From Sediminibacterium sp. (lineage in GTDB: Bacteria > Bacteroidota > Bacteroidia > Chitinophagales > Chitinophagaceae), in the NCBI GenBank assembly GCA_036758845.1, contig DAIOVU010000009.1, positions 10,166-74,165 on the forward strand: a stretch of 64,000 nt of DNA, given 5' to 3'. A program made the translations under genes and the position numbers. The notes beneath the pieces are model-generated. The model saw only the letters and a program-made list of their open reading frames with translations. It had not been told where the DNA came from and searched no databases. Each line of letters opens with the position of its first letter. The stretch's first letter is position 1. This document shows, in pieces, positions 45,665 through 55,519 of the stretch.

Positions 45665-46372
45665 TTAAATAAACACAGCTTCTGCTTTTACAATACTTTC
45701 CGGTTTTCCTACATCTATCATATGTGCGCCGGTATGATCGTAAGATGAAATAATATGATCTTTTGCAAGGTCAAGGTAAACATCTACCATTGAAAATTTT
45801 CCTTCCCGTTTTATTTGCTGAAGCAGCAGTCCACTGATAACGTGTATACCACTGAATGCTTTCTGATAAAGCTTATCCGCAGCCCGTACAATTTTTTCTT
45901 CTCCTGTTTTCACATTGCGCCAGCCTGATAAAACAGCATGCTCATCAAATAAAAAATAGCGCGATGTTTCACGATCACTTACGGCAAGTGTTGCTATTGG
46001 TTTTTGTTGCCAGTGCTGGCTGATCATAGCAGTCAGATCCATGTCTGTAAGTATATCTACATTGATCACTACAAAATCGCCTTCTCCTTCAAAATACCAG
46101 GCGGCCTTTTTTAATCCCCCACCTGTTTCAAGTACTGTGTCTGTTTCATCAGAGATAGTTATCTCTGTTCCCCAACCTTTATTTTTGTCAATAGCCGCTA
46201 CAATCTGATCTGCAAAATGATGTACGTTCACTATCACTTCATAAATACCATGCTGCTGGAGGTATTCTATATTTCGCTGCAATAATGATTTCCCATTCAC
46301 CAGGGCCAATGCCTTGGGATGCAGATCTGTCCATGGTTTCAGGCGGGAGCCAAGGCCAGCCGCGAAGATCAT
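45665..46372 (-). CDS. sugar-phosphate nucleotidyltransferase (MurU-like)
   Basis: The track ORF runs to 46447, but the first 25 codons translate a repeat (SPFRGQGGKGQGGKEQGGK). The likely start is MIFAAGLGSRLKPWT at 46372 (CAT at 46370..46372). GxGxR nucleotidyltransferase P-loop. Sits immediately downstream of an AmgK-like kinase gene. Confidence 0.75.
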   Translation of the reverse strand: MIFAAGLGSRLKPWTDLHPKALALVNGKSLLQRNIEYLQQHGIYEVIVNVHHFADQIVAAIDKNKGWGTEITISDETDTVLETGGGLKKAAWYFEGEGDFVVINVDILTDMDLTAMISQHWQQKPIATLAVSDRETSRYFLFDEHAVLSGWRNVKTGEEKIVRAADKLYQKAFSGIHVISGLLLQQIKREGKFSMVDVYLDLAKDHIISSYDHTGAHMIDVGKPESIVKAEAVFI

Positions 46373-46391
46373 CGCTTTACCCCCTTGCTCT

Positions 46392-46519
46392 TTACCCCCT
46401 TGCCCCTTACCCCCTTGCCCCCTGAAGGGGGAATTGAATACAGTCATTATTGTTTGAATTACTGATTTAATATTATTAAAATCTTACTTAACTCCCCCTT
46501 CAGGGGGCTGGGGGGCAGG
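46392..46519. repeat. family D element, empty form: inverted CCCCCTGAAGGGGG palindromes around a 57-bp AT-rich core
   Basis: Left end: TTACCCCCTTGCCCCTTACCCCCTTGCCCCCTGAAGGGGGAATT (to 46433). Right end: AACTCCCCCTTCAGGGGGCTGGGGGGCAGG (46490..46519), which is the reverse-complement orientation of the left end. Confidence 0.75.
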
Positions 46520-47962
46520 CAGTTCTCTCACCCAATTCGCACTATTTGTGTGCGCCAGTTTCACTTTCACTTTATACTTGTTGCGTAAATGTCGCGCTGT
46601 TTGTTCGGCGGCATATACACTGCGGTGCTGGCCTCCGGTGCATCCGAAATTGATCATTAAATGACTGAAGCCTCTTTGCAGATAAGTTTCTACCGAAATA
46701 TCGATGAGGTCCCAAACGCTGTTCAGGAACTCATTCATTTTGGTTCTTTGTTCAAGGAAATCTTTAACCGATTTATCATTACCCGTAAGTGTTTTATATT
46801 CATCAAAACGCCCAGGGTTTAAAATTGCCCGCATATCAAATACAAAACCACCGCCATTTTCTGATGGATCGGCAGGAATTCCTTTTCTGTAGCTGAAACT
46901 GTTTACTTCTATCACCAATGGCGTTTCTTCATTTGCCTGTGTTGGCTGAAAGCGTTTAATCATATCATCAGCCACTACTAAACGCAGTACACGGTCAAAC
47001 TCCGGCGTTACAATGCCAATACGTTTATGCTCTATAAAGAATTGCAGGTTACGCAATGCCAGCGGGATGCTTGCTAGGAAATGCGCTTTACGCTCAAACA
47101 AACCTCTGAACCCATAAGCGCCCATTACCTGCAATAAACGGATCAATACATAGCCGTTATACTGACTCACAAAAGTGATACGGTCAACAGGTTTGCCCAG
47201 CAGGTCTTCTATACGATCCATATAAAATTCAAGCAAAGAATTCTTCCAGTCCTCACTCAGTTCGGCTTTTGCCTGCCATAACAAAGATGCCACATCATAT
47301 TGCAGGGCGCCTTTCATCCCGCCCTGGTAATCGATAAAATTTACTTCATCATTTTTTACAATAATATTCCGGCTCTGAAAATCGCGGAACATAAAGTATT
47401 TGTATTCTGTTCGGGTGAGGTAGGTACTCAGTGCATCAAAATCATCCAGCATAGCCTGTTTATCATAAGGTAACTGGAGGGTATCGAGAAAATAATATTT
47501 AAAATACAGCAGGTCGCTCATGATGGCCTGCTTACCAAATTCTTTGGCCGTTAAGCACCAGTCGTAATTCAGATCCTTATCTCCCAAAATCTGCACACGG
47601 GCCAATGCCGCCAGACTTTTCTGAAACAGTTCATATACATACTCACCATGCCCTTTTTCTTCCAGTTTATTTAACAGCGAATCTGTACCGAGATCCTGCT
47701 GGATATAAATGGTATCATCTTCATTTACTCCAAGGATAGCCGGAACCGGTAAGCCTGCATTAATAAAATGACGGCTGAAATACACAAAAGTTTGTGTTTC
47801 TTTTTTATTGATGTTATAGGTTGCAATAAAAGTGTTTTCGCGGGAATAAATGCGGAAATAGATCCGGTCGCTACCGCTCTGGGGCAGTTTTTCAATCCTG
47901 TCCGGTTTGGGGTTGCCAATCGATTCAAACAATTTACCTATAGCTTCAATCACTACCTCCAT
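46484..47962 (-). CDS. fusion protein: AmgK-like anomeric sugar kinase (APH/choline-kinase fold) plus RapZ C-terminal domain
   Basis: 492 aa. Residues ~1-330 carry APH-fold kinase motifs (SGSDRIYFRIY; FRDFQSRNIIV; NFIDYQGGMKGALQYDVASLLWQ). Residues ~345-480 align by eye with the C-terminal half of E. coli RapZ (SFSYRKGIP...FVFDMRAILNP...LTGNDKSVKDFL...INFGCTGGQHRSVYAAEQTARHL). The last ~11 aa come from the family D repeat. Confidence 0.75.
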   Translation of the reverse strand: MEVVIEAIGKLFESIGNPKPDRIEKLPQSGSDRIYFRIYSRENTFIATYNINKKETQTFVYFSRHFINAGLPVPAILGVNEDDTIYIQQDLGTDSLLNKLEEKGHGEYVYELFQKSLAALARVQILGDKDLNYDWCLTAKEFGKQAIMSDLLYFKYYFLDTLQLPYDKQAMLDDFDALSTYLTRTEYKYFMFRDFQSRNIIVKNDEVNFIDYQGGMKGALQYDVASLLWQAKAELSEDWKNSLLEFYMDRIEDLLGKPVDRITFVSQYNGYVLIRLLQVMGAYGFRGLFERKAHFLASIPLALRNLQFFIEHKRIGIVTPEFDRVLRLVVADDMIKRFQPTQANEETPLVIEVNSFSYRKGIPADPSENGGGFVFDMRAILNPGRFDEYKTLTGNDKSVKDFLEQRTKMNEFLNSVWDLIDISVETYLQRGFSHLMINFGCTGGQHRSVYAAEQTARHLRNKYKVKVKLAHTNSANWVRELPAPQPPEGGVK

Positions 47963-52356: not shown

Positions 52357-52522
52357 ACTTTTAAACGTAAAACGCATCGGCATATTAATTTCAATAGCAC
52401 AACATATAAAGGTTTCTACCAACTCTTGTTCCCTGACGGCTTCTATTTTACAAAACAGTCATTCTTTCAGATATCTTACTGACAAGGTGCTGACTTTTAT
52501 TCCCACTGAAACAGAATGTGCA

Positions 52523-53116
52523 TCAGGGTTGCAGCCCAAACACATTTACCTGCTTACAGCTATCAATCTGGTGCCGCCTGCGCAGCAGTATCAGTTCCTT
52601 CACATCAAATGAAGCATGAAACGTTTTTTCTGCATATACTTTTACCGCCTCGCTATAAGTTGTTTGCTCTAATCTCCTGGCAATGGTAAGATGTGGATTG
52701 GTGATCAAATGCATCTCCGGGCAACCATAGCCACGTATGTACTGATCAACCACTTTCAGTTCTTTTGCCAGTTGCTGAAACGGCTGGTGATCCTGCACCC
52801 GCAGATAAATGGTATGCGGCCTGAAAGCGCCATATTGATCCAGTGTTACACGAAAACTTTTTTTACTGCTGATGATGCGGTGCATCCACCGGATAATCGT
52901 TTCTTCCATTGGCTCCAGCGCCATAAAATTGGCCACCGTAATATGTGGCTGGGTCTTTACCGCAGCCATTAATTTAAATTGCGCAGAAAAGAATTTTTTC
53001 TCTTCCATTACCTGCGCATATACGGCCTCATCCGGCCGGGCCACCAGCAGGTATTCCCAAAACCCTTTTACCTGCGCACTGCTGAATGTTTTATTGGTTG
53101 CTACACCTGTATCCAT
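52523..53116 (-). CDS. 2H phosphoesterase superfamily protein (2'-5' RNA ligase LigT-like)
   Basis: 197 aa. Two intact H-x-T motifs (QPHITVA and NPHLTIA) at the spacing expected for the 2H fold. Confidence 0.75.
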   Translation of the reverse strand: MDTGVATNKTFSSAQVKGFWEYLLVARPDEAVYAQVMEEKKFFSAQFKLMAAVKTQPHITVANFMALEPMEETIIRWMHRIISSKKSFRVTLDQYGAFRPHTIYLRVQDHQPFQQLAKELKVVDQYIRGYGCPEMHLITNPHLTIARRLEQTTYSEAVKVYAEKTFHASFDVKELILLRRRHQIDSCKQVNVFGLQP

Positions 53117-53144
53117 AAATAATTTTTTTACAGAGATAATGATT

Positions 53145-53173
53145 TTAGTATAAATTTACTAAATAATTTAGTA
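53145..53173. promoter_or_regulatory. candidate operator: overlapping palindromes TTAGTA-N6-TACTAA-N5-TTAGTA
   Basis: Seen directly in the 75-bp divergent region between the 2H gene start (53116) and the umuD start (53192). No binding-motif database was consulted. Confidence 0.35.
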
Positions 53174-53191
53174 TTTCAAAATTTAATTTAT

Positions 53192-53629
53192 ATGGACGGG
53201 GAACAATGGTATGGGGCCGCCTACAAAGGCTCTAAGAAATTTAACCAGTGGGAAATACCCACTGCCAACGCCACCGGTTTTGGCGCCGCTGCCGATGATT
53301 ATATGGAACGGGGTATTGACCTGAACGAACAACTGATCCGCAACAAGCCCGCCACTTTTTTCTTCCGTATGAACAGCGATGCAATGGCTGAGGCCGGCAT
53401 CTTCAGCGGCGATGTGCTGATTGTTGACAGAAGCGTAAAAGCCGTTAACGGAAAAATTATCGTGGCCATACTCAACGGCGAGTTGCTGGTGCGGCGCCTG
53501 CAAACACATATCAAAGGCGTTACACTGGTGGCAGAAAATAAAAAGTACGGAAATATCCAGGTAGAAGAGTTTAGCAATTATGCGGCGTGGGGGGTAGTTA
53601 TTTATTCTATTCACCCCCTAACCCCCTGA
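53192..53629 (+). CDS. umuD: S24 peptidase, UmuD-like (translesion polymerase V accessory / LexA-family autopeptidase)
   Basis: 145 aa. Catalytic Ser (RMNSDAM) and Lys (NGKIIVA) at S24 spacing and an Ala-Ala/Gly-type cleavage region (GFGAAADD). The last ~6 codons and the stop lie inside a family D repeat. Confidence 0.85.
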   Translation: MDGEQWYGAAYKGSKKFNQWEIPTANATGFGAAADDYMERGIDLNEQLIRNKPATFFFRMNSDAMAEAGIFSGDVLIVDRSVKAVNGKIIVAILNGELLVRRLQTHIKGVTLVAENKKYGNIQVEEFSNYAAWGVVIYSIHPLTP

Positions 53630-54238
53630 AGGGGGAATTTGATTTTTATGTACTCAACAGCAGTACTTTATTCAACTTCTGTTGCGTCGCACACTTGTAC
53701 GGTTTGTTCTATGTTCAACATTTTACCCCCCGACCCCCTGAAGGGGGAGTTAAAAAAAAGTTTATGAAACAGAAAATGTTTTATGATGCAACGCCATTGA
53801 TCTTCAGTCGCGCCAAAGAATTAAGAAATAATCTAACCCCTGCTGAAATGAAGCTATGGTCATACCTGCGTACAAAGCCATATGGCCACAAATTCCGAAG
53901 ACAACATCCGCTATGTCCTTTCATCGCTGACTTTTATTGTCATACCCTGAAATTAGTTATTGAAGCAGATGGCAGTATTCACAACAGGGATGAAGTAAAA
54001 CAGGCAGACAAAGCCAAACAGTGGTCATTGGAAATAGAAAACATCCAGGTACTTCGGTTCACCAATTCAGCTATCACAAATCAGTTCGAAGAAGTTATCG
54101 CTATCATCAATACGATACTTGCAAAAGAAAGGCCAATCAACTCCCCCTTCAGAGCCTGTCCCGCTCAAGCGGGAGGGCAGGGGGGTAAAATTATTATTTC
54201 AACCAAAAATACAGTTCCCCCTTCAGGGGGCTAGGGGT
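53612..54238. mobile_element. putative palindrome-bounded cassette carrying a DUF559 endonuclease gene
   Basis: The left boundary has two copies of CCCCTAACCCCCTGAAGGGGGAATT / CCCCGACCCCCTGAAGGGGGAGTT (53612..53640 and 53724..53751). The right boundary has two reverse-oriented copies (54139..54189 and 54214..54238, AGTTCCCCCTTCAGGGGGCTAGGGG). The cassette sits exactly between the umuD stop and the umuC start. Confidence 0.45.
53764..54234 (+). CDS. DUF559 domain protein (Vsr/restriction-endonuclease-like fold)
   Basis: The likely start is MKQKMFYDA at 53764; the track ORF at 53587 reads through repeats. DUF559 signature: LRNNLTPAEMKLWSYLR...FRRQHPLCPFIADFYCHTLKLVIEADGSIH...D..KQWSLEIENIQVLRFTN. 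The C-terminal ~30 aa are repeat-derived. Confidence 0.8.
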   Translation: MKQKMFYDATPLIFSRAKELRNNLTPAEMKLWSYLRTKPYGHKFRRQHPLCPFIADFYCHTLKLVIEADGSIHNRDEVKQADKAKQWSLEIENIQVLRFTNSAITNQFEEVIAIINTILAKERPINSPFRACPAQAGGQGGKIIISTKNTVPPSGG

Positions 54239-55519
54239 ATGCGCGCCATCGTTGATTGTAACAGCTTCTACTGCTCCTGCGAGCGTTTGTTCAGGCCCCA
54301 TCTCCAGAACAAACCTGTTGTGGTATTGAGCAATAACGACGGTTGCATCATCTCGCGCAGCGATGAGGCCAAAGCCCACGGCGTAGAAATGGCCGGCCCT
54401 TATTTTAAGGCCAAACCATTAATTGAAAAATATGGCGTGGCCACATTCTCCTCCAACTACAATCTTTATGGCGACCTGAGCTGGCGCGTTATGGAAACCC
54501 TGCGCATGCTGCTGCCACCACATTCTGTAGAAGTATATTCTGTTGATGAATGTTTTCTTGATCTCGCACATATTGCACCACAAGACCTGCAATCTTTTTC
54601 TTTATATCTGCGCGAGATGGTGGAACAATGGACCGGCATCAAAGTATCCGTTGGCGTAGCGCCAACAAAAGTGCTGAGTAAAGTAGCCAATCGTTTATCC
54701 AAAAAAAATAAAGAAGTCACCAATTGCGTACTGGTGCTTGATACACCGCGAAAAACAGAACAGGCATTAAAGCGAACGCCGATAGAAGATGTATGGGGCA
54801 TAGGCTTCCAGTATGCTGATAAACTGCGCCGCATGAACATTAATACCGCGTACGATCTCAGCATTAAAGACATTCACTGGGCAGGCAAACATTTGGGCGG
54901 CGTAACCGGCATGCGCCTGCTGCGCGAGTTAAAAGGCATTGAAAGCATACAGATGCTGGATGAACTCGTTAACAAAAAAATGATTGCCACCACCCGCATG
55001 TTCGGCTCGCCTGTTACCGATCTGAAAGATATCAAAGAGGCAATAGCAACTTATACTTCACGCGCAGCAGAAAAATTAAGACGGCAGCATAGCGCGGCCA
55101 ATACCGTAAGCGTATTTGTAGTACCCAAAGAAGAATCACATACCGCACATTTCCGGCATGGTCCCACAGTGGGCAGTCATATCATATTACCGCTTGCCAC
55201 ATCATCCACCAACGAGCTCATTAAACCTGCAGTGGCGTTGGTAGATCGTTTGTATGAAAGCGGAAGGGTTTATAAAAAAGCCGGTGTAATGCTAAGCGGT
55301 ATTGTGCCCGACAGTTCTATACAGGGCAACCTTTTTACTCCACCCGGGAAAAACAAGCACCGCATGCTGATGAGTATGATCGATAATGTGAATTTTGCTA
55401 TGCGCGATGATATATTGAAGTTTGCATCCTCCGGCACCACCCGCAACTGGAAGATGCGCCAGGAACTCCGCAGCCCGCGCTACACCACGCGTTGGGAAGA
55501 ATTGTATGAGGTAAAATAA
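54239..55519 (+). CDS. umuC: Y-family DNA polymerase (UmuC / Pol V catalytic subunit-like)
   Basis: The likely start is MRAIVDCNSFYCSCERLF at 54239 (ATG at 54239..54241); the track ORF at 54119 reads through repeats. Motifs VVVLSNNDGCIISRS, YSVDECFLD and the little-finger domain. Confidence 0.9.
   Translation: MRAIVDCNSFYCSCERLFRPHLQNKPVVVLSNNDGCIISRSDEAKAHGVEMAGPYFKAKPLIEKYGVATFSSNYNLYGDLSWRVMETLRMLLPPHSVEVYSVDECFLDLAHIAPQDLQSFSLYLREMVEQWTGIKVSVGVAPTKVLSKVANRLSKKNKEVTNCVLVLDTPRKTEQALKRTPIEDVWGIGFQYADKLRRMNINTAYDLSIKDIHWAGKHLGGVTGMRLLRELKGIESIQMLDELVNKKMIATTRMFGSPVTDLKDIKEAIATYTSRAAEKLRRQHSAANTVSVFVVPKEESHTAHFRHGPTVGSHIILPLATSSTNELIKPAVALVDRLYESGRVYKKAGVMLSGIVPDSSIQGNLFTPPGKNKHRMLMSMIDNVNFAMRDDILKFASSGTTRNWKMRQELRSPRYTTRWEELYEVK

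Follow-up and report, generated by a model that had tools for sequence, protein, structure and literature searches.

A DUF559 gene framed by inverted repeat units lies between umuD and umuC

We analysed a 64,000-nt stretch of Sediminibacterium sp. DNA (contig DAIOVU010000009.1, positions 10,166 to 74,165; hereafter the window), in which the two genes of the Pol V operon, umuD and umuC, are separated by one intact gene of the DUF559 family and by short repeat units made of C- and G-runs. An earlier note on this DNA had described a 609-bp separation, with two copies of a palindrome in one orientation on the left and two in the opposite orientation on the right, and had read the whole as a small selfish cassette with DUF559 as its only cargo. 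The gap was indeed 609 nt, DUF559 was the one intact gene within it, all three genes lay on the plus strand, and the four copies were recovered in the orientations described, including the one at 54139-54191, which is real though split. The features are listed below in window positions; loci collected for comparison are cited by L numbers and sequencing runs by X numbers.

53192 to 53629, plus strand: umuD, autoproteolytic subunit of Pol V (Pfam Peptidase_S24, E 2.3e-23)
53614 to 53635, plus strand: unit U1, solo repeat in the 3′ end of umuD, CCCCC-TAA-CCCCC-TGAA-GGGGG (Y1-linker-Y2-loop-R)
53640 to 53719, plus strand: remnant of the native umuD-umuC spacer (80 nt), homologous to the spacers of L081-L084, L086 and L085
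53720 to 53751, plus strand: unit U2, left end of the cassette, ATTTTA-CCCCCC-GA-CCCCC-TGAA-GGGGG-AGTT
53764 to 54234, plus strand: open reading frame (ORF) of a DUF559/YcjD-like Vsr-fold nuclease (PF04480, E 1.8e-26)
53764 to 54138 and 54139 to 54234, plus strand: parts of the DUF559 ORF, the domain (amino acids 15-119) and a repeat-derived read-through tail
54139 to 54191, minus strand: unit U3, right end of the cassette, reverse complement of U2 (inverted repeats)
54205 to 54237, minus strand: unit U4, outer right repeat, CCCCC-TTCA-GGGGG-CTA-GGGG, which carries the TAG stop of the DUF559 ORF
54239 to 55519, plus strand: umuC, catalytic subunit of Pol V (Pfam IMS, IMS_C and DUF4113)

The repeats form two nested inverted pairs, 53615-53647 with 54205-54237 (33 nt, 88% complementary) and 53720-53751 with 54139-54191. 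The terminal inverted repeats of the earlier note thus have a basis, but the insert is a composite of a solo unit U1, a remnant of native spacer, a cassette U2-DUF559-U3 and a fourth unit U4, and U1 is a separate element rather than a terminus. Because 53640-53719 is native spacer, the cassette proper spans 53720-54191. When the umuD 3′ ends of relatives were aligned, U1 appeared as an indel of ~21-23 nt against L085, L081 and L084; just 3′ of it (53637-53642) ATTTGA, the native stop of umuD, survives. No target duplication was found around U1 when filled and empty sites were compared across relatives, and metagenome contigs break at 53613, the edge of the unit. The spacer relatives L081-L084 and L086 carry neither repeats nor DUF559. 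Within the native spacer, GTTGCGTCGCAC at 53681-53692 was invariant in seven relatives, CCCGGCA was conserved upstream of it in most, and RNAalifold gave no supported structure.

The left end of the cassette, U2, has an identical design in L164 and L085 and lies 12 nt from the DUF559 start codon. U2 and U3 have the outer motif TTTTACCCCCC / GGGGGGTAAAA in common, and L164 and L085 are organised alike. U3 is split by a 21-nt mini-hairpin insertion (54152-54172), and the close relative L164 has the uninterrupted form. The inserted hairpin is CCCGC-TCAA-GCGGG, and a related strain (run X10, window 53625) has a very similar one of 21 nt, CCGCCCAGGCGGGACAAGCT, at the corresponding position in U1. 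Such insertions may represent either a longer form of the unit that recurs or a tiny element with units as its target. U4 resembles the right end of a second type of cassette (L165, L087, L090 and L002), which is flush with both genes.

The units also contribute to the coding sequences around them, as the earlier note had perceived. U1 supplies the final four codons of umuD (PLTP) and its stop, the TGA of the loop; the DUF559 ORF continues for ~31 amino acids past the domain through U3 and the following spacer and stops at the TAG in U4; and U4 itself ends 1 nt 5′ of the umuC ATG. Many DUF559 homologs are likewise called with an '...IPPSGG' tail.

Design, folding and copy number of the repeat unit

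The copies in the window consist of a C-run, a 2-3-nt linker, a second C-run, TGAA and a G-run; the unit begins with the C-run and has no GTAG or CGTC tag. The 14-mer CCCCCTGAAGGGGG occurs on the plus strand at 53622 and 53734 and as its reverse complement at 54217, and it or its complement occurs also at 46418 and 46494. In total, 10 strand-hits were found in the window, compared with 0.14 expected from shuffles. A scan for the three-block pattern recovered exactly five intact units, with the split U3 as a sixth, and no further C4+-N3-6-G4+ hairpins were present in the 64-kb window (40.8% G+C). Linkers were TAA and CTA in the window and TTA and CGGA in relatives. Across the Bacteroidota loci described below, loops were TAAA or TGAA and 5′ arms were composed of pyrimidines without exception. 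Because stems are nearly all C/G runs, covariation counts were few; the rare variants (CCTCTCC/GGAGAGG and others) keep the pyrimidine 5′ arm.

Single units were no more stable as hairpins than shuffled sequences (z −0.4 to −1.1), so that they are not marked by simple hairpin energy. The U3 stretch folded at −14.2 kcal/mol (z −3.5). In ViennaRNA, which modelled hairpins only, the G-run was able to pair with either C-run. An Rfam scan of 52500-55000 gave no family at the repeats. Simple terminators were also considered and rejected: U1 and U4 fit the pattern, but five matches were found compared with 2.2 ± 1.8 in shuffles.

In run X1, the body of the DUF559 gene was covered by one contig at a depth of 24, whereas the U2 region had a depth of 274 and was shared by seven contigs (~11x), which broke exactly at unit edges (53613 and 53721-53726). 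The ratio of these depths indicates that the units are repeated about ten-fold (~11 copy-equivalents) and that the gene is single in this run. In 1.02 Mb of collected loci, strict-motif matches fell near DUF559 (183), in gene-less clusters (43) or alone (6), and every gene-less doublet had the polarity of the cassette, plus then minus. One such doublet lies in the window.

46372 to 46520, minus strand: gene-less inverted doublet of CCCCCTGAAGGGGG-type units (46410-46431 and 46494-46515)

This doublet is flush between two co-oriented minus-strand genes, APH/PapZ-like and NTP_transferase, contributes the tail of the upstream gene ('PPEGGVK*', its last codons and stop) and folds as a long hairpin (−30 kcal/mol, z −6.9). 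Its Y1 arm is triplicated at 46366-46410. From the doublet the downstream ORF gains a spurious N-terminal 'GQGGK' three times over. L165 has a doublet at the same junction with identical repeats and a spacer that has diverged and gained or lost bases. The comparison of the two sequences points to constraint on the repeats or to their conversion.

DUF559 genes and repeat units are associated across Bacteroidota

We scanned 80 DUF559 loci of Bacteroidota, taken from one genome per species and 44-67% identical over the best matched segment. They span Chitinophagales, Sphingobacteriales, Cytophagales, Flavobacteriales, Bacteroidales/Marinilabiliales and Balneolaceae. In most of them the best inverted match between the two flanks was a CCCC(C)-N3-5-CCCC(C)-TRAA-GGGG(G) unit. 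A strict 12-mer was counted up to 300 nt from DUF559: upstream it was found 54 times on the plus strand and 22 times on the minus strand, and downstream 59 times on the minus strand and 16 times on the plus strand. The three-block scan placed a plus unit upstream in 61/80 loci, a minus unit downstream in 63/80 and both in 50/80. Unit density was 4.3/kb near DUF559 (~320 nt) and 0.094/kb beyond 1 kb, a 46-fold enrichment with the expected inverted polarity. The earlier note had asked whether DUF559 genes are systematically flanked by these repeats, and the 80-locus scan agrees that they are; relatives with the same arrangement keep the repeats.

The genes around the cassette varied. DUF559-unit cassettes were found between umuD and umuC (L001-L005), between argF-like and argB genes (L006 and L040), between HlyD-like and ABC ATPase genes (L048 and L071), 3′ of FtsX-like permease genes (L023, L056 and L070) and between urocanase and ispF genes (L161). 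In L056 the DUF559 gene stands between two direct copies of a 187-nt doublet that are 98% identical. About 75% of cassette neighbours were co-oriented. In the Bacteroidales loci L023 and L056, tandem cassettes or doublets bring along ~50 nt that look like the upstream FtsX-like permease gene at its 3′ end, a pattern expected from co-conversion or from unequal recombination between paralogous permease loci. One DUF559 gene (P0057), listed in 39 blocks, was considered as a multi-copy gene; the 24 contigs examined represented one genomic context in many samples, and this was ruled out.

Units adjoin DUF559 genes in other phyla and ycjD in Escherichia coli

The matches of a tblastn search of a plasmid collection included several chromosomes. 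Three-block units adjoined DUF559 in 8/8 of the loci inspected from five other bacterial phyla or classes (Picosynechococcus, Synechocystis, Pseudanabaena, N. gonorrhoeae NGO0050, E. coli, Deinococcus, Azospirillum and Photobacterium), compared with ~0 in shuffles. In Deinococcus the gene is framed by a 56-nt inverted repeat that is 95% complementary.

The E. coli K-12 member is ycjD (b1289), which is located between sapF and fabI. Its ORF terminates in a BoxC-like unit, whose loop holds the stop TGA (L170, NC_000913.3 1351040-1351760); on the 3′ side come a duplicate of part of the ycjD 3′ end and then more units. Tandem duplication of the last 60-100 nt of DUF559 together with the right unit was observed in L085 (2350-2500) and in L170 (2480-2640). 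This recurrent duplication of a gene 3′ end plus a unit may be the footprint of unit copying.

BoxC repeats, also called PIT elements or, in E. coli, TM_ECO (TM, triplex motif), follow the pattern CCCTCNCCC-N3-6-GGGNGAGGG-N3-GGGNGAGGG (Holder et al. 2015, PMC4666352). They occur in many copies in several hundred proteobacterial genomes; MG1655 has 23 TM_ECO copies, all intergenic and five as inverted pairs, and the second loop is TTA or CCG (PMC4666352). Neighbours of the motif have no common function, loci that bear it are locally unstable, and an earlier study found no promoter or terminator activity of PIT elements (cited in PMC4666352). Salmonella is without TM_ECO according to the same paper, which names neither ycjD nor DUF559 nor any endonuclease. 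At 23 units per 4.6 Mb, simple arithmetic gives a chance of ~0.003 that a unit lies within 300 nt of a given gene.

Across all 5,426 complete E. coli genomes, the places matched by a 49-nt BoxC query numbered 18 per genome in the median. The ycjD gene was present in 3,378/5,426 of these and absent from 38%; elsewhere among E. coli genomes it is replaced by eefRABCD (cf. PMC12817139). In an evenly spaced sample of genomes counted with blastn (megablast was too insensitive), BoxC places numbered 17-33 in genomes with ycjD (median 22, n = 37) and 2-20 in genomes without it (median 8.5, n = 22; Mann-Whitney p = 5e-10). These counts fit a partnership of nuclease and repeat, though they are confounded by phylogroup.

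Cassette turnover at the umuD-umuC junction

We compared 80 metagenomic umuC loci whose UmuC proteins were 68-89% identical. The junction was found in five states: compact or overlapping genes (8-70 nt), spacer only, DUF559 cassettes (L085, L087, L088, L090, L107 and L129), doublets and other inserts. Empty junctions, which the earlier note had suggested looking for, therefore exist in relatives. The 65-nt spacer of the L089 doublet retains the 5′ leader and the first 11 codons of DUF559, which identifies this doublet as an internal-deletion derivative of a cassette. When the spacers of doublets were compared with cassette interiors, gene remnants were clear in L089 only.

L165, which comes from a 5.26-Mb contig, shares synteny with the window across 12 genes, with amino acid identities of 63-94%, and its UmuD and UmuC are 93% and 90% identical to those of the window. 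Its DUF559 protein is just 52% identical, compared with ~73% expected from the rates of the close pair (in which DUF559 dN, the nonsynonymous divergence, was ~2.6x that of umuC), and its cassette has no native spacer. In a strain from runs X25-X27, umuD and umuC have ~96% and ~93% nucleotide identity to the window, the left architecture differs and DUF559 is divergent. Cassettes are thus turned over at the same junction. Pairwise identities of DUF559 and UmuC were uncorrelated (Spearman −0.08), and DUF559 identities flattened at 48-72%, near the floor of the family; the comparison with the syntenic genome L165 is the stronger test of turnover than this co-phylogeny.

Other inserts were also recorded at the junction. 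Y1 genes (IS200/RAYT-like; IS, insertion sequence; RAYT, REP-associated tyrosine transposase; REP, repetitive extragenic palindromic) of two families were found on other Chitinophagaceae-like contigs, in L096, L097, L099, L103, L104, L114, L117, L121, L126, L132, L144, L149 and L156, and one of the families is flanked by 35-38-nt REP-like inverted repeats. Long REPIN-like hairpins were present in the umuD-umuC gap of L098, L122 and L145. Since Y1 genes and REP-like repeats occupy the junction in sister lineages, it is a shared harbour, or hotspot, for elements that pair a nuclease with repeats.

The DUF559 protein is a predicted EDxHD-type nuclease

The DUF559 protein of the window scored 92.6 bits with PF04480 (cutoff 20.6; family PF04480, COG2852). 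Its best NCBIfam model was YcjD, PRK09767 (72.9 bits, under the equivalog cutoff of 218), and it matched the structure of N. gonorrhoeae NGO0050 (PDB 3HRL) by sequence with E 1e-15. An AlphaFold2 model built from 32 homologs had a mean confidence (pLDDT) of 84. In Foldseek this model matched 3HRL with a TM-score of 0.87 and the catalytic domain of I-Bth0305I (3R3P) with a TM-score of 0.80 and a probability of 1.0; Vsr (1CW0 and 1VSR, weak) and TnsA came far behind these top matches. The homing-endonuclease domain of I-Bth0305I is dimeric and cleaves a pseudo-palindromic site (PMC3239194). Residues D56, E67, D69, H73 and D82 were invariant across the 32 homologs. The model thus predicts a Vsr-like PD-(D/E)XK fold with its EDxHD-type catalytic residues intact. 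The protein, of ~120 amino acids, consists of the nuclease domain and two short N-terminal helices, and the N-terminal NUMOD/helix-turn-helix (HTH) DNA-binding region is absent from it.

Compared with L164, the ratio of nonsynonymous to synonymous substitutions (dN/dS) was 0.15 at dS 0.28 for DUF559 and 0.05 at dS 0.34 for umuC. The low ratio together with the invariant catalytic residues indicates that the gene is functional; by these substitution rates it is under purifying selection and has co-diverged with umuC over the distance to L164.

A role in anti-phage defence was considered and set aside, PADLOC giving just a weak mREase_II match. Many DUF559 homologs (P0002, P0004, P0006 and others) are labelled 'HisF' or 'cyclase' by the Joint Genome Institute (JGI), names that are apparently artefacts of annotation. 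The DUF559 ORF of L006 and L040 continues in frame across the right unit and into argB, and read-through fusions of this kind may seed wrong names.

Neighbouring features

The umuD product exceeded the cutoff of NCBIfam PRK10276 (129.5 bits), and the best NCBIfam match of the umuC product was PRK03609 (366 bits, under the curated cutoff of 431). One further feature lies upstream of the operon.

53147 to 53173, no strand assigned: operator-like palindrome upstream of umuD, TACTAAAT-A-ATTTAGTA

This segment, TTTAGTATAAATTTACTAAATAATTTAGTA, holds a perfect 17-nt palindrome, TACTAAAT-A-ATTTAGTA, ends 18 nt 5′ of the umuD ATG and is near-invariant in 12 relatives; judged by its sequence and position it is probably the operator of the operon, of the SOS/LexA type. 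A weak match to the Rfam ssnA motif on the minus strand at 52523-52569 (26 bits, gathering score 37.3), at the 3′ end of a 2′-5′ RNA ligase-like gene, is probably due to chance.

Discussion

We consider it somewhat probable that the segment between umuD and umuC is a REPtron-like nuclease-repeat cassette, the PD-(D/E)XK counterpart of the REPtron, in which a RAYT (TnpA-REP) gene is bounded by REP repeats. As in REPtrons, a single nuclease gene is bounded by inverted short structured repeats, the gene is low-copy, vertically inherited and selected, and the repeat is dispersed at gene junctions as gene-less inverted doublets and singlets with no target duplication. RAYT-like genes with REP-like repeats hold the same umuD-umuC junction in sister lineages. 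There are also differences: the REPtron enzyme is an HUH Y1 (IS200-like) transposase, whereas that of the window has a predicted PD-(D/E)XK Vsr fold and belongs to DUF559 only in Pfam; the REP repeat is an imperfect palindrome with a GTAG or CGTC tag, whereas the window repeat has three blocks (Y-Y-R) and no tag; and REP copies number hundreds, whereas copies of the DUF559 unit number tens. The pairing of DUF559 with its units is likened to the REPtron by association, and nuclease activity on the repeat is putative.

The repeat itself has the architecture of BoxC / PIT / TM elements. Both have the block order of a C-rich arm, a 3-6-nt loop, a G-rich arm, a 3-nt linker (TTA, CTA or CCG) and a second G-rich arm; both are intergenic and often form inverted pairs, although the edges of window units overlap called ORF ends; and both are linked to local genomic variability. 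The arms are the 9-nt CCCTCNCCC in E. coli and homopolymer runs of 4-6 nt in the window. The five intact window units fit the three-block pattern with arms of 4-5 nt, under the 6-nt minimum of the published search. For BoxC the published work gives no partner gene, function or mobile-element link (PMC4666352). We tentatively propose, at somewhat lower confidence than the reading of the window itself, that DUF559/YcjD nucleases are the missing partner enzymes of BoxC / PIT / triplex-motif repeats throughout bacteria and form with them a second, independently evolved system like that of REP and RAYT.

Such a system would comprise one nuclease gene per genome together with dispersed gene-less units and inverted doublets, which would number from a few to tens. 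The nuclease, probably a dimer, would recognise its cognate repeat either as a pseudo-palindromic duplex or, when single-stranded, as a hairpin or triplex, and would nick or cut there. Break-induced copying or gene conversion could then maintain the flanking unit copies, and the same repair might carry units into further gene junctions, leaving no target duplication, and might occasionally swap or delete a gene between two units. As the 12 nt between U2 and the ATG leave no room for a promoter of its own, the expression of DUF559 probably depends on read-through from the host operon, in this case umuDC, which is presumably SOS-controlled. We infer all three parts of this scheme, namely the action of the nuclease on the repeats, the spread of copies and the expression by the host operon.

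Several observations weigh against this proposal. The link between DUF559 and the repeats is one of association throughout; the E. coli gene ycjD has its units on the downstream side and not on both; genomes without ycjD still hold their 2-20 BoxC copies, in a correlation confounded by phylogroup; and Holder et al. saw neither a stable triplex in vivo nor a connection with mobile elements (PMC4666352). Units are few, with ~1 locus per 30 kb in the window and one extra doublet in 357 kb of UmuC-selected loci. DUF559 homologs are rare on plasmids and phages, several 'plasmid' matches being chromosomes, and the dS values of the L164 pair (DUF559 0.28, umuC 0.34) speak for vertical inheritance over short range. 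The best genome matches (L001-L005) are all umuD-umuC cassettes, and one old insertion followed by fast, saturating divergence could explain much of the pattern; because DUF559 identity saturates near 50%, the missing correlation with UmuC is ambiguous. The most economical history of this family begins with an old insertion, after which came fast divergence, loss and, occasionally, replacement.

The earlier note had suggested that the endonuclease mediates its own spread in the manner of a homing gene or of a MITE (miniature inverted-repeat transposable element) with cargo. The deletion derivative L089, the gene-less doublets, the turnover at the junction and the homing-like fold are in keeping with a self-spreading cassette, whereas each step of self-mobilisation stays conjectural in our analysis. 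Short-range vertical inheritance, purifying selection, the lack of target duplication and the contrast between a single-copy gene and multi-copy repeats all fit poorly with either form of the idea, and because the gene is single-copy and the repeats are multi-copy, a partnership like that of REP and RAYT fits better than a MITE with cargo or a site-specific homing gene. The resemblance to a MITE with an autonomous IS parent extends to the inverted ends and to gene-less derivatives that keep both ends (L089 also keeps the ORF start), but the cassette has no transposase of a known family, U1 shows no target-site duplication, and solo units of ~22 nt occur. A free-standing homing endonuclease gene specific for the umuD-umuC junction, which would cut cassette-free alleles and be copied in by repair with the repeats as by-products or buffers, is in our judgement unlikely. 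Its fold would be right, that of the EDxHD homing-endonuclease domain being nearest (I-Bth0305I, PDB 3R3P, which shares the catalytic fold and E67, D69, H73, D82 and D56); like such genes, DUF559 lies between conserved genes and has filled and empty alleles in close relatives, the top relatives are all at umuD-umuC, and the ~50 nt of FtsX-like 3′ end co-duplicated in Bacteroidales is what co-conversion would leave. Yet the cassette occupies many unrelated junctions (argF-like/argB, HlyD/ABC, FtsX-like, urocanase/ispF and sapF/fabI), gene-less doublets stand at others, and its constant neighbour is the repeat and not a particular host gene. The ~120-amino-acid protein also lacks the NUMOD/HTH extension of I-Bth0305I, no intron or intein is involved, and the gene resides on a bacterial chromosome rather than in a phage.

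Vsr is a repair nickase, and DUF559 might likewise be a domesticated, structure-specific nickase that acts on hairpins or triplexes of C/G-run repeats and limits stalling or instability, the repeats having spread otherwise, by slippage, template switching or another enzyme, and the gene being linked to its unit pair through regulation or hitch-hiking. Purifying selection and vertical inheritance, the single copy, the position in a DNA-damage operon with a conserved operator-like site, the instability of BoxC/TM loci in E. coli (PMC4666352) and the BoxC copies kept in genomes without ycjD all suit a caretaker of this kind. It would leave unexplained why inverted units bound the gene in nearly every lineage and why cassettes are replaced or deleted between close relatives, and ycjD is dispensable, being absent from 38% of E. 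coli genomes; we regard it as rather unlikely. The likeness to Vsr itself is confined to the nuclease fold and active-site residues, since the matches to 1CW0 and 1VSR are weak, no Dcm partner gene is adjacent, the Pfam families are separate and the genes around DUF559 give no hint of a part in mismatch repair. An RNA-level device is improbable. Here the units would be RNA hairpins or pyrimidine-motif triplexes that insulate or process the polycistronic transcript, and DUF559 may cut RNA; cassettes and doublets sit flush between co-oriented genes and give them stop codons, the complementary cassette ends could pair in the transcript, and U1 and U4 have terminator-like scores. The Foldseek list includes mitoribosomal proteins of Toxoplasma and Tetrahymena, which presumably carry Vsr-like RAP domains, and RAP/FASTK domains of the Vsr fold have been reported to take part in mitochondrial RNA processing. 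The title of one paper (PMC11879112) presents FASTKD4 as a Vsr-like protein and as a regulator of an mRNA's stability and polyadenylation. Against such a device, the repeats matched no Rfam family and the invariant residues fit DNA-cutting EDxHD enzymes. Moreover, co-oriented neighbours amount to only ~75%, which is close to the genomic background, and PIT elements had neither promoter nor terminator activity in the earlier study (PMC4666352).

Long-standing synteny without mobility, with an old gene fixed at the umuD-umuC junction and ordinary GC-rich hairpins as the repeats, would account for the same arrangement in several Chitinophagaceae genera and for the co-divergence of the gene with umuC in the close pair. 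It is largely refuted by the 46-fold enrichment of the motif at DUF559 genes in unrelated contexts and phyla, by the empty sites, the deletion derivative and the turnover, and by the 10 strand-hits in the window where chance gives 0.14, and we consider it very improbable. Hardly credible, finally, is an invertible, phase-variable segment whose inverted repeats serve as recombination sites that flip DUF559. Two annotations, 'DUF559 domain-containing protein' and 'endonuclease domain-containing protein', are over-represented among predicted targets of programmed inversion, with odds ratios of 14.3 and 9.6 (Milman et al., PMC9881135), an enrichment expected because a screen for inverted repeats picks any gene flanked by them. 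Gene orientation relative to unit polarity was constant across loci, no contig of four runs had the flipped form, the sole 'opposite strands' joint connected two same-orientation units in a metagenome assembly, and no recombinase gene adjoins the cassette.

The earlier note was not aware of DUF559 genes as cargo of palindrome-bounded units. In the literature that we searched, which did not span all journals, no paper linked DUF559/YcjD to BoxC or to repeats and none on these repeats was found by motif string, whereas the repeat itself was already known as the BoxC/PIT/TM architecture (PMC4666352). The parts, namely the DUF559 family, the BoxC/PIT repeats and the REP-RAYT concept, are thus known, and their combination appears to be new.

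If DUF559 nucleases are the partners of these repeats, as we propose, the origin, dispersal and instability of BoxC-type repeats, whose function and origin are still called unknown (PMC4666352), would be explained, and the large DUF559 family, to which E. coli ycjD and N. gonorrhoeae NGO0050 (PDB 3HRL) belong, would gain a function; as an enzyme-substrate pair, the repeat puzzle and the DUF559 puzzle would be solved together. The REP/RAYT concept, a resident nuclease that farms its own repeats, would then cover a second enzyme superfamily and reach Bacteroidota, Cyanobacteria, Deinococcus and Proteobacteria. E. coli K-12, with ycjD beside BoxC, and the natural lineages without ycjD make the idea testable. 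In the window, such a unit lives in a DNA-damage-tolerance operon without breaking it, giving stop codons to its neighbours and ending 1 nt before the next start.

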